A stretch of DNA of 64,000 nucleotides from Octopus vulgaris (lineage: Eukaryota): assembly GCA_951406725.2 (NCBI GenBank), contig OX597822.1, positions 100,254,001 through 100,318,000 on the forward strand. The letters run 5' to 3'. The notes under the pieces were generated by a model that was given only the letters and a program-made list of their open reading frames with translations, had not been told where the DNA came from and made no database searches. Position 1 is the first letter of the stretch, and every line of letters begins with the position of its first letter. Shown piece after piece: positions 26,062-63,852 of the stretch. Made by a program: the position numbers and the translations under genes.

Positions 26062-26453
26062 GCAGTATCGCCCGGCGTTGCTCGGGTTTGTAAGGGAAAT
26101 AACTATATAAGCATTTTTAGAGATGTAAAGTATAATAGCCATCTCAATATGGCTAACCACAAAGGGGGGTGTTACTGTAGCTTTTTACGTTCTGAGATTT
26201 AATAATAAATTTTTAGAGAGTTACTTCCCTTATATATGCCAAAAATGCATTAAAAATGGGAAAAATTGATGGTAAATTCTTTTTAAAATCATAGACTCAT
26301 CGTAGACATGCACTAATACCCAGAAGGGCTCGATATGAATCACGACTATAAGATGCCCAGTTTTGGTTAAACTGCACTGCAAAATGTGGGAGTAGTTAGG
26401 AATCTAAATCGTAGGAGACAGACAGCACACAACCTTACTTTTACGTATAAAGA
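26059..26453 (-). mobile_element. Non-autonomous Helitron
   Basis: 5' TC, 3' hairpin CCCGAGCAACGCCGGG then CTAG, A^T insertion site in (TA)n. Confidence 0.88.
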
Positions 26454-60259: not shown

Positions 60260-60525
60260 CTTAACACATTAGTCTAGACAGGTATCTTCAGCTAGCAGGC
60301 CTTGCTACTCCAGACTGATGATGAGCAAATACTCAGAAACATGTCTCTAGATGCAGGCTTAGCTGTTGGGGGTGCTTGTCTCCCCTTCGCAAATATAAGG
60401 ACACAGGAAATGTGTCAAAGCCGACAGGAAGCGTCGATGCTTCCTAGGGCTAAATAGCGGTGGTGTGATTCCCTTTACGGGACTGTCACGTTAAGTTGAC
60501 AGTATACAACTGCTCTATTGCTCCA
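60260..60525 (+). mobile_element. Retrozyme-like structured element, copy 1
   Basis: Hammerhead followed by a series of hairpins; homologous to 63067-63334 on the - strand. Confidence 0.7.
60289..60365 (+). ncRNA. Type I hammerhead ribozyme, canonical core, predicted cleavage after C60345 (GUC)
   Basis: TCCAGA-CTGATGA-TGAG caaata CTCA-GAAA-CATG-TC-TCTAGA; stem I extends past a TAC bulge (CTTGC/GCAGG, CAGCTA/TAGCTG). Confidence 0.88.
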
Positions 60526-61810
60526 CCATTGCTCATATCTCTCTGAGATATTTAGAAATTTAAAGTTCCTAGTCATTCTACCATTAAGTGTGGATAAGGT
60601 GAATATGTAACACACATTGTGCTTGATAGAGGTAAGTCTGCTTAGTGAACTGGTGCTTACTAAGTGCTGAGTGTAGTAATCTCAGTCACTTATACGTCAT
60701 GCAACCTGGATTAAGCCCTTGGATTCACGACAGACATAAGTAAACAGAGAATTGGTTAACTTGCTAGAAATAGCTGCCAAGTCTCTTTCAAATTGCATTG
60801 TACCATTTTAAATAAAAGGAGGCCACATTGGGTTATGCAATCTTAAGGATATTCTAAAATGTAGGAATGGGAGGAATTACAACCGTGTTTCGTGGTCTGC
60901 TATCACAACAGCTCCTTTATAGGATCCAGTTAGCTCAAGACATCATCTGGAGGAACCACGTCCGGTTTTGGCCCTACTCCTCTACCGTTTTGATGTTGCG
61001 CCCCACCTCCCTTTCGGAGGTGTCTTCAGCTCTGGTGTTGGGTGCATGTCTTCTTTCTTCTGTTCCCTGGCCTCTTCGATGTATGGTCAGCGAGTGTCAG
61101 CCGGTGACTGACTGTCTTGTCAAATTTTTTTTCCCCTTTATAACAGGGATTTTCTGATCAGAAGTCTCTGCTCTATCAGGGTTAGCCTTGGGCTGAACAA
61201 CAACAGCACAATACATATTTAAGTCTTCTATTTAGAAATCAATGGAAGTGTATAAAAATAATAATTATCCGTATGAGAATACATTGCCATTATATGCAAA
61301 TAGCTTTGTACATTGTGCTAAATTTAACTCACAGACATGTATTGAATTATATAATGCTCATTCATATAGCTATATGCAGCAGCACTATACATATTTGACA
61401 GTTCCATTTTTTAATTTTTTTAAATAAATAAAACTACTGGCAGGGAAAAAGTGTATTGTGTTGTGGACTGTACTTGGTAGATTATTTAGATTGAGTCATT
61501 TTATTTGTGTGGAAGGCTGGAAGAATTAAGTATTCCCTGTGCATTTTAGTATTGGCTGACACCCTACTAATATACTTGGCACTATGTCTCCTCCTTTCTG
61601 CGTTTTTTTTAATCTCCTTGATATACCTTTTTCTGATATCTGAAGAGAAACAGCAATTTTAGCAGAACGTATTAAGCAACAGTAATATAAAATTAAAAAA
61701 CAAAAATAAACAATCTTTTGAAGGTTTTATAGATATTTCAAAAGTATGATGCTATTATGCTAGATGTTTCCATTATTTCGTCCAATCCCTCTATACACAC
61801 ACACACACAC

Positions 61811-61889: not shown

Positions 61890-62148
61890 CCGGAGTAAAT
61901 ACATAAATGTGAAACAAGGTGGAAAAAAGAGTACTCAAATACCAGTGGTAGAGTAATATGCTTTATTTAAAGCAGCAGAAAATTCAACAAAACCTGTTAC
62001 TCTGAGTTTGCCGGTCGTCGGACAGTTTTTGCTAAAAAAAAAAAAAAAAAAAAAAAAAAACAGTTTTCTAGCAAAAACTGTCCGACGAACGGCAACGGGA
62101 AACTCAGAGTAACAGGTTTTGTTGAATTTTCTGCTGCTTTAAATAAAG
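61890..62148. mobile_element. Penelope-like element end with inverted duplication (arms 61961-62034 and 62069-62148, poly-A loop)
   Basis: About 75-bp near-perfect inverted repeat carrying the hammerhead motif, inserted in a TA/CA microsatellite. Confidence 0.65.
62073..62120 (+). ncRNA. Variant type I hammerhead motif in a Penelope-like palindrome
   Basis: AAAAACTGT-CCGACGA-ACG gcaa CGG-GAAA-CTCAGAG-TA-ACAGGTTTT. Confidence 0.62.
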
Positions 62149-62349
62149 TAAATATATATATACACACACATACATATACACACATACATTATTTCTTATT
62201 AAATGATAAATATATGCATGTATTTTATTCAATATTTTAAATTTATTTCACATAACTATGAAACTGAATATGTATTGCCTGACTACCCACTTGAACATAA
62301 TTCATCTTTTTGTTTGGTAATTTTATTTTCATTTTCATTGTCTTTTTAG

Positions 62350-62412
62350 TCAAAGTTATTAAAAACTAGTCTTCCTGATGGTATTTTTGTTAAAGAATTT
62401 GAAGAGAGAATG
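62350..62412 (+). CDS. UBE2O: UBE2O exon N (SKLLKTSLPDGIFVKEFEERM), phase 0-0
   Basis: 63 nt; resembles LLATSLPEGIMVKTFEDRM; tttttag/gtatgt. Confidence 0.94.
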
Positions 62413-63066
62413 GTATGTATTGATTTTTCTACTTTCATTATTTTTTTTTGCACTACTTTTCTTATTTATATATAAATGTATAATCATTTTTGTGAGTTCT
62501 TTAGATCTTTGTTTAATCTTTGGAAAAATAGATATTCTCCAGGTTTCTTGTTTGTTTCATCTTTTTCTATTGTAATGCCATATATTATTGTAATAACCCT
62601 TTGTACAAAAGACACAATGCCTGAAATTTGTGGGGAGAGGACTGGTCGATTACATCTACCCCAGTGTTCCTCTGGTACTTAATTTATCGACTCCTAAAAG
62701 GAATATTATTGTAATAATAATACTTATAATATATTCTTAAGAGCAGTATACATGCCGTAATGTAAGCTGTAAACTCTTACTCAGCTGTGTTGTGGTTATT
62801 TCCCTTGAGTCGTTTTTGTAATCGTTTCAGTCGACTTAATCCCCCAAGTTCAAACAGAGGATTTGTACCTGCTTAGTTCAAAGTAGATTGACTGAAAAAA
62901 AAGAATATCATTGTTAAAATTTCTTTTCTGTAATATTGTTTAATTAGATTCTGATTTGTTGCACTTTTAGTACCTATGACCTGTTACAGGGTTTTTGCAA
63001 TTGACAGGAGGGGGGAAGGAGGTGAGGGAGATATCTTCAAAACTGAAAACCTGCTGCAAATACATT

Positions 63067-63364
63067 CAACAGAGTGGATTTTGATATGTTGTCAACTTTA
63101 TGTGACAGTCCTATGAAAGGGAAGAATGTTACTGTTATATTTAGCCCAAGGAAACACCGTTTCCTGTTGGACTTGACATATTTCCTGTGTCCTTATGTTT
63201 TCAAAGTGGAGACAAGCACCTCCACCCAGCAAAGCCAGCATCCAGAGACTAGTTTCATAGTCACTGCTCATCATCAGTCTGGAGTAGAATGGATTTTGAT
63301 AAAAGTAACCAAGATGCCAGGTCATGGTGTTAAGTCAGGTCACTCATTAAGTCTACCAGTGAAG
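63067..63364 (-). mobile_element. Retrozyme-like structured element, copy 2
   Basis: Shares GGTGCTTGTCTCC, ATAAGGACACAGGAAAT, GGGCTAAATA and GGACTGTCAC..AAGTTGACA with copy 1. Confidence 0.7.
63241..63283 (-). ncRNA. Type I hammerhead ribozyme, same family as 60289 (weakened stem II)
   Basis: Reverse complement: TCCAGA-CTGATGA-TGAG cagtga CTAT-GAAA-CTAG-TC-TCTGGA. Confidence 0.8.
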
Positions 63365-63648
63365 AAAGTTGTGGGATTTTTAACTCAACACAAAGAACTG
63401 GAACAAACACCACAAGACATCTGATCCAGTATCCTTACAATTCCACCAATCTATAATCCTAGATTGTTATTTTTATATTGATCTTGAAAAAATGATAGGC
63501 AAAGTTGACCTTGGTGGAATTTGAACTCAAGACTGCAAAAAATCAAAACTTTACCATTTTATCTGACACTATAACAATTCTGCTAGTTTGAGTAAAAGTC
63601 TGTAATTCTGTAGTTTGAATATATTTTTTTTTAATTCTTTATTCTCAG

Positions 63649-63852
63649 GACTTATTCTCAGTGATGATAGTTGGGCCTTCAAATACGCCCTATGAAGATG
63701 GTCTATTTATTTTCGATGTCCAGTTGCCAAATGATTACCCTGCATCACCACCCAGGTTCCATTATTTGTCCTACTGTGCTGATCGACTCAACCCTAATCT
63801 TTATGAAGATGGTAAAGTCTGTGTAAGCTTATTGGGTACTTGGTCTGGCAAG
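63649..63852 (+). CDS. UBE2O: UBE2O exon O, UBC catalytic core (active-site Cys codon TGT at 63820-63822)
   Basis: [20 protein letters not shown]...[23 protein letters not shown]; NPN in place of HPN as in UBE2O/BIRC6/UBE2Z. Confidence 0.97.

Follow-up and report, generated by a model that had tools for sequence, protein, structure and literature searches.

Copy B, the minus-strand element at the centre of this analysis, is very probably a truncated and likely inactive copy of a non-coding hammerhead repeat of the metazoan non-LTR retrozyme kind. A Penelope-like RT/GIY-YIG enzyme acting in trans is the likely agent of its insertion. Together with copy A, a second element in the same window (the whole stretch of 64,000 nucleotides analysed here), it belongs to a single repeat superfamily with at least eight subfamilies, and this superfamily is a further member of an element kind that has already been described, the metazoan non-LTR retrozymes. 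Taken alone, copy B would be an ordinary dead insertion. The insertion footprint of its family, in turn, supports a proposed dependence of animal retrozymes on Penelope-like elements, for which co-occurrence and repeat homology have until now been the main grounds.

Copy B and its repeat superfamily

The intron that holds copy B, in antisense orientation, belongs to a UBC-domain gene, which we take to be UBE2O-like, and precedes the exon that carries the domain match (Table 1). Fragments of a very high-copy repeat, visible as spikes in contig depth, occupy 62600-62720 and 63480-63533 of the same neighbourhood. The minus strand had originally been aligned with 60260-60525 over about 270 nt. The homology itself stood, with 175 of 229 columns identical between copies A and B (76%); the length did not, as the homologous segment spans approximately 63086-63295, the common part measures about 210-230 nt, and 63302-63364 is flank.

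Table 1. Coordinates of the features discussed, in window positions
Feature	Position	Strand	Remarks
Copy A	60278..60561	+	Subfamily A; ends near T2, the second fixed 3' end
Hammerhead core, copy A	60309-60351	+	C.A mismatch in stem I
UBC-domain gene exon, likely	62350..62412	+	From translation, splice sites read; upstream of copy B
Target-site duplication, left copy	63075..63086	.	12 bp, exact
Copy B	63087..63289	-	5'-truncated subfamily-B retrozyme copy; 3' end is T1, the family's first fixed 3' end
Hairpin 5 (UGUCA/UGACA), copy B	63090..63107	-	Directly upstream of 3' end T1
Hairpin 3 (AGGAAAC/GUUUCCU), copy B	63149..63165	-	Two-sided change across subfamilies in 7 of 10 pairs
Hairpin 1 (GUGGAG/CUCCAC), copy B	63206..63225	-	Weakest covariation of the helix set
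Type I hammerhead motif, copy B	63237..63289	-	Stem II broken at 63258
GAAAC-UA-GUC, copy B hammerhead	63247-63256	-	Predicted cut after 63247
CUGAUGA, copy B hammerhead	63271-63277	-	From sequence
Hammerhead stem I, copy B	63278-63283 with 63241-63246	-	From sequence
UAC bulge, copy B hammerhead	63284-63286	-	From sequence
Target-site duplication, right copy	63290..63301	.	12 bp, exact
Host exon	63649..63852	+	Pfam UQ_con match, E 3.5e-18

The paired motifs listed in the original prediction are all present in the sequence, namely the change of the stem III palindrome from ACAUGU to ACUAGU, the hairpins GUGGAG/CUCCAC, AGGAAAC/GUUUCCU and UGUCA/UGACA, and the stem I helix UCCAGA/UCUGGA. Its further claim that the differences preserve pairing fails for copy B, which is about 5% diverged from the subfamily-B majority (11 differing columns out of 211). 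The differences include a C-to-A change in stem II, a G-to-U change in distal stem I and an A-to-G change in loop II. The first of these, at 63258, places a G.A in stem II beside the U.U typical of the family; the variant is found in only one of 33 B copies, and contigs from other runs mostly have the pairing base there. The predicted fold of copy B is no better than that of shuffles (z = -0.44), compared with z = -5.2 for copy A. With both stem II and the distal part of stem I broken in this copy itself, and a fold that does not exceed shuffles, copy B is likely a decayed and dead fragment. The compensatory changes noted earlier are, as the sequences read, differences between subfamilies and not selection on copy B. 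Across B copies, the core is less diverged than the remainder (4 of 495 versus 226 of 5799 cells), which is a weak measure because the copies were picked by similarity.

The insertion is old: contigs from three runs, carrying three different organism labels, span its T1 junction. Such persistence might also be expected if the host had retained the intronic copy for some function, such as pre-mRNA processing of the UBC-domain gene; we consider this very improbable, given that copy B is antisense to the gene, that its stems are broken, and that it is no closer to its majority than its relatives are (4.8% on average), with a fold matched by shuffles. Copy A is sense to the host-gene pre-mRNA, and the C.A mismatch in its stem I and the want of a partner hammerhead likely limit its predicted cleavage.

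Genome searches with copies A and B returned 3410 and 2485 first-look candidates, respectively, and yielded two distinct sets of relatives (best 40 scored each). The exact hammerhead-core pattern of the two copies matched the genome 445 times and the control not once; a broad hammerhead pattern gave 2534 matches against 44 in the control, a figure that is not a copy number, since 19 of 30 fetched places were family members by eye. A pattern with a three-base loop III failed on subfamilies A-G and led to H and J. When 152 full-length copies were grouped into nine clusters, similarity between the cluster majorities was 46-90%, and copies diverged from their own majority by 1.3% (I) to about 9% (G, H) on average. 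A weak match to the 3' hairpins of the superfamily (E 0.005) is also present at 26134-26181.

Units measure 353 bp in subfamily A, approximately 345 bp in B (joined reference), 362 bp in C and 352 bp in I, with a GC content of 41-44%. They are arranged as monomers and short tandems with up to three cores in a row, the observed periods being 353 bp and, where three cores are present, 362 bp. The tandem copies that the original prediction proposed to look for thus exist, up to about 2.6 units; no longer array was found among the best 40 candidates. As had been predicted, the units contain no credible reading frame, the longest ORF with a Met start reaching 38-57 aa when units A, I and C are doubled. 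Simple regular-expression patterns for a Pol III A-box or B-box gave no match in these three units. The predicted lack of a tail is correct for poly(A), but members of the family may carry a 3' extension of the Penelope type, about 45-60 nt long and absent from copy B. No Rfam entry matched at gathering scores. Among the papers listed on octopus and cephalopod retrozymes, hammerheads and SINEs, none describes the superfamily; it may be catalogued in supplements, Dfam or Repbase.

Several subfamilies have features of their own. Subfamily I (L201-L214), whose copies lie only 1.3% from their majority, is the youngest; it has a U4C core and the 8-nt palindrome ACUCGAGU, and we regard it as the best candidate for current activity. 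In a branch of subfamily A (L004, L016, L024, L026, L029 and L030), a 4-nt duplication has produced a 10-nt palindrome, often accompanied by a compensatory UCUAGA/UCUAGA stem I. Subfamilies G1-G3 (L181-L199) are older and have a C3.A8 core mismatch in most copies, which may be tolerated or may be a sign that cleavage is dispensable.

RNA structure across the subfamilies

What is the evidence for selection on the RNA? At the family level, the repeats contain a canonical type I hammerhead by the definition in PMC4209133, with a helix I of about 6 bp, a helix II of about 4 bp, a helix III of 1-2 bp and a palindromic loop. The UAC bulge and the CAAAUA-like loop II may resemble those of the Schistosoma ribozyme. 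Covariation was assessed on 30 copies across subfamilies in 11 labelled groups. Run unaided, RNAalifold recovered stem I together with hairpins 3 and 5; of the 21 pairs in this prediction, 16 have two-sided changes. A 42-pair structure, which was written by hand from the same alignment, had 83.6% of its cells paired, as opposed to 71.7% after shuffling and 36-45% with slid partners. It contained 178 two-sided cells against 64.8 in shuffles, cell counts being inflated by related copies, and neither this value nor the paired fraction was reached in any of 500 shuffles. Two of five covariation measures, those that count pairs or pair types, were not above shuffles (113/500 and 442/500). Stem I has two-sided changes in all nine pairs, and covariation is weak at hairpin 1 and at the base of stem II; hairpin 2, which MAFFT had aligned out of register from one subfamily to another, was not counted. 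Taken over the 30 copies, covariation of the hammerhead and of the hairpins that follow it is strong, with the above limit on two of the measures.

Stem III is palindromic in 110 of the 152 full copies, as ACAUGU, ACUAGU, ACCGGU, ACUCGAGU or ACAUGCAUGU; the remaining copies comprise 7 non-palindromic ones, 23 without a pattern match and the 12 of the H-type group. These words do not fold alone and are predicted to pair as dimers, a pairing via stem III that is described for canonical metazoan hammerheads in the account of PMC4209133. Circular folds of whole units gave predicted z values of -8.9 (A), -8.8 (I) and -4.0 (C), each against 40 shuffles. On the basis of covariation, palindrome conservation, short tandems and the missing ORF, RNA structural selection is well supported for the family as judged from its sequences, and the original proposal of a retrozyme-like family under such selection is upheld at this level.

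The core pair itself varies between subfamilies: it is C3-G8 in A, B, H and I, U3-A8 in 28 of 28 copies of C, D and E, and C3.A8 in G. Weakening core variants occur in three subfamily groups, namely C3.A8 (G), U4C (I) and the U.U at the stem II base (B). The occurrence of such variants in whole subfamilies might indicate a structured, Penelope-dependent SINE-like repeat with a weak or dispensable hammerhead, copied from linear read-through multimers in a cycle that involves no circles. Mutating the hammerhead of an anole element left its insertion in vitro unaffected, and none of the reads stopped at the cut site, according to PMC11167929. We nevertheless judge a cycle of this type to be quite unlikely: stem I and the stem III palindrome have been kept through many two-sided changes between subfamilies that are only 46-90% alike, and U3-A8 and U10.1-U11.1 are tolerated natural variants (PMC3088659). 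A reading of UGAUGA as part of a C/D-box snoRNA was dropped, since the U3-A8 covariation and stem I account for the motif.

Insertion footprint and target-site duplication

The 3' ends of the repeats cluster at two sites, about 200 nt (T1) and about 255 nt (T2) after the core, in all four subfamilies mapped, and their 5' ends are scattered. Among 49 head-to-head pairs, 35 combine T1 with T2, three have like ends and 11 are unclassed, so that one end of each type is present in 35 of the 38 classifiable pairs; the T1 and T2 windows were defined after the end histogram had been viewed, and the queries used for C and I were biased towards anchors at T1 but left the partner arm free. By analogy, such a combination of fixed 3' ends with 5' ends truncated at random and with head-to-head pairs is the footprint of a Penelope-like element. 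The portions of the literature considered describe an optional tail on one inverted repeat and duplications of 8-10 bp (PMC3846280), tandem and inverted structures with a microsatellite bias (PMC8557442), and initiation at two internal sites, both strands being cut (PMC11167929), for such elements.

How does copy B fit this footprint? The 16-bp direct repeat described in the original prediction is indeed present, starting at 63071 and 63286 with a spacing of 215 bp. Its exact 12-bp core was matched by none of 100 dinucleotide shuffles of 62991-63400, and its remaining four bases (63286-63289) overlap the truncated 5' end of copy B. After removal of three duplicate loci, flanking repeats of at least 10 bp were found at 18 of 92 family insertions, whereas shuffled pairings gave 0.6 on average. 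Among the 58 A/B insertions, 15 have flanking repeats of 11-13 bp; subfamilies C and I lie mostly in (AT)n, where duplications are unreadable. The flanking repeats differ in sequence between insertions and are alike in length. Because of the exact core and of these repeats of the same length and different sequence elsewhere, we read the 16-bp repeat as a 12-bp target-site duplication, lengthened by microhomology at the truncated end. No empty orthologous site was present among the listed joints across the copy B insertion, and the duplication at copy B therefore rests on family statistics. The boundary of a 215-nt unit is out as a reading of the repeat, since other B copies differ there and the unit measures about 345 bp.

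We envision a scenario whereby tandem retrozyme copies are transcribed, two hammerheads pair via their palindromes and cut out a unit-length RNA, and this RNA circularises. A Penelope-like enzyme would then cut its target with a stagger of about 12 nt, and each of the two DNA ends would prime reverse transcription at an internal site of the RNA, one of them at T1 and the other at T2. Where two cDNAs meet, a head-to-head pair would result, whereas one cDNA caught by microhomology would leave a single truncated arm such as copy B, which would have decayed after insertion. Twin priming at T1 and T2 is what we infer here; no title among the matches listed proposes it for Penelope-like elements, and antisense self-priming has been put forward for their inverted copies in the account of PMC3846280. 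A possible, if less than probable, explanation of the near-strict T1+T2 asymmetry is a dimeric enzyme of the Penelope type that starts synthesis from both ends of a 12-nt staggered break, using two different fixed sites of the small retrozyme RNA. In that case twin priming, and not antisense self-priming, would explain why Penelope-like elements have head-to-head repeats with a one-sided tail, and the conserved hairpins 3-5 of a 350-nt RNA would form a minimal trans-acting recognition signal for the enzyme.

Retrozymes and Penelope-like elements

Given these features, how does the superfamily compare with known systems? It shares with the metazoan non-LTR retrozymes, as presented by Cervera and de la Pena in 2020 (PMC7229834), a canonical type I hammerhead, ORF-free tandem units of about 350 bp with a GC content of 41-44%, target duplications of more than 4 bp, a highly self-paired circular fold (predicted here) and co-occurrence with Penelope-like elements. 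It falls within the metazoan-retrozyme range of 150-450 bp units and a GC content below 50%; units of 350-390 bp in mussel and 330/350 bp in axolotl are given in that account, and the U.U at the base of helix II recurs in the axolotl HHR_Amex2 (PMC7229834). Unlike those retrozymes, the superfamily has short tandems and is known here from DNA alone, its sequence is not known to be related to theirs, and its fixed T1 and T2 ends and head-to-head pairs do not feature in the parts of PMC7229834 considered. Hammerheads have been reported in another cephalopod, with 235 hammerhead-1 matches listed for the giant squid genome in the section of PMC6962438 consulted.

Penelope-like elements and their pLTRs, as far as they are described in PMC3846280, PMC8557442, PMC11167929 and PMC4209133, resemble the superfamily in 5' truncation, partial tandems, a head-to-head inverted copy, an optional tail on one arm, microsatellite targeting (here in subfamilies C and I) and the presence of a hammerhead, including U3-A8. 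In contrast to them, the superfamily contains no RT/endonuclease ORF, its hammerhead is canonical instead of minimal, its extension measures 45-60 nt and not 30-40 bp, and its duplication is about 12 bp and not 8-10 bp. A dependence of retrozymes on Penelope-like elements has already been proposed, according to the portions considered of PMC7229834 and of a study of vertebrate retrozymes (Li, Clavereau and Pollet 2026, bioRxiv 10.64898/2026.07.22.740005), which are likewise mostly monomers with few repeat units. The evidence outlined there consists of co-occurrence and pLTR homology, whereas ours is an insertion footprint, and pLTR homology was not found.

Autonomous elements are present in the genome. 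A search for GIY-YIG candidates gave 6136 first-look matches, of which 150 were scored and 38 loci read. One of these (L125, G000:C6:133343500-133349500) has an intact 781-aa ORF for RT and GIY-YIG between direct repeats that contain a minimal hammerhead-like motif with a U3-A8 core and GAAACAUGU. This ORF has a CxxC linker and is Neptune/Nematis-like by the description available in PMC8557442, and 16 further GIY-YIG matches have an open frame of 781 aa. Coexistence of the young subfamily I and the intact ORF in one genome would provide ready substrates for studying dimer-dependent cleavage and two-site priming.

With so many GIY-YIG candidates in the genome and a footprint identical to that of autonomous elements, the units might alternatively be detached pLTRs of an autonomous Penelope-like element, left behind by 5' truncation and devoid of an independent RNA cycle; many Xenopus retrozymes match pLTRs in the part of bioRxiv 10.64898/2026.07.22.740005 considered. 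Conversely, tandem units abut directly with no ORF between them, and tblastn of six Penelope-like proteins against the element-bearing loci gave one short match, besides the low-complexity matches of one query. Superfamily matches in the GIY-YIG loci number three, at two places, and all are located outside the ORF-linked repeat; beyond the hammerhead core, comparison of the unit with the repeats of the autonomous element revealed no shared sequence. Nor was an RT and GIY-YIG ORF linked to the unit in the loci examined. On balance, an origin as detached pLTRs is unlikely, and we favour retrozymes that are mobilised in trans.

The window also contains a different and very young element, arranged as a head-to-head pair at 61890-62153, with a minimal hammerhead-like motif (CCGACGA ... 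GAAAC) and the cut triplet GUA. Many copies are 100% identical among 548 candidates, and they lie in (AT)n; no Penelope-like ORF was present within 1.5 kb of 12 loci. This element, too, ends at two fixed 3' positions, which are separated by about 70 nt.
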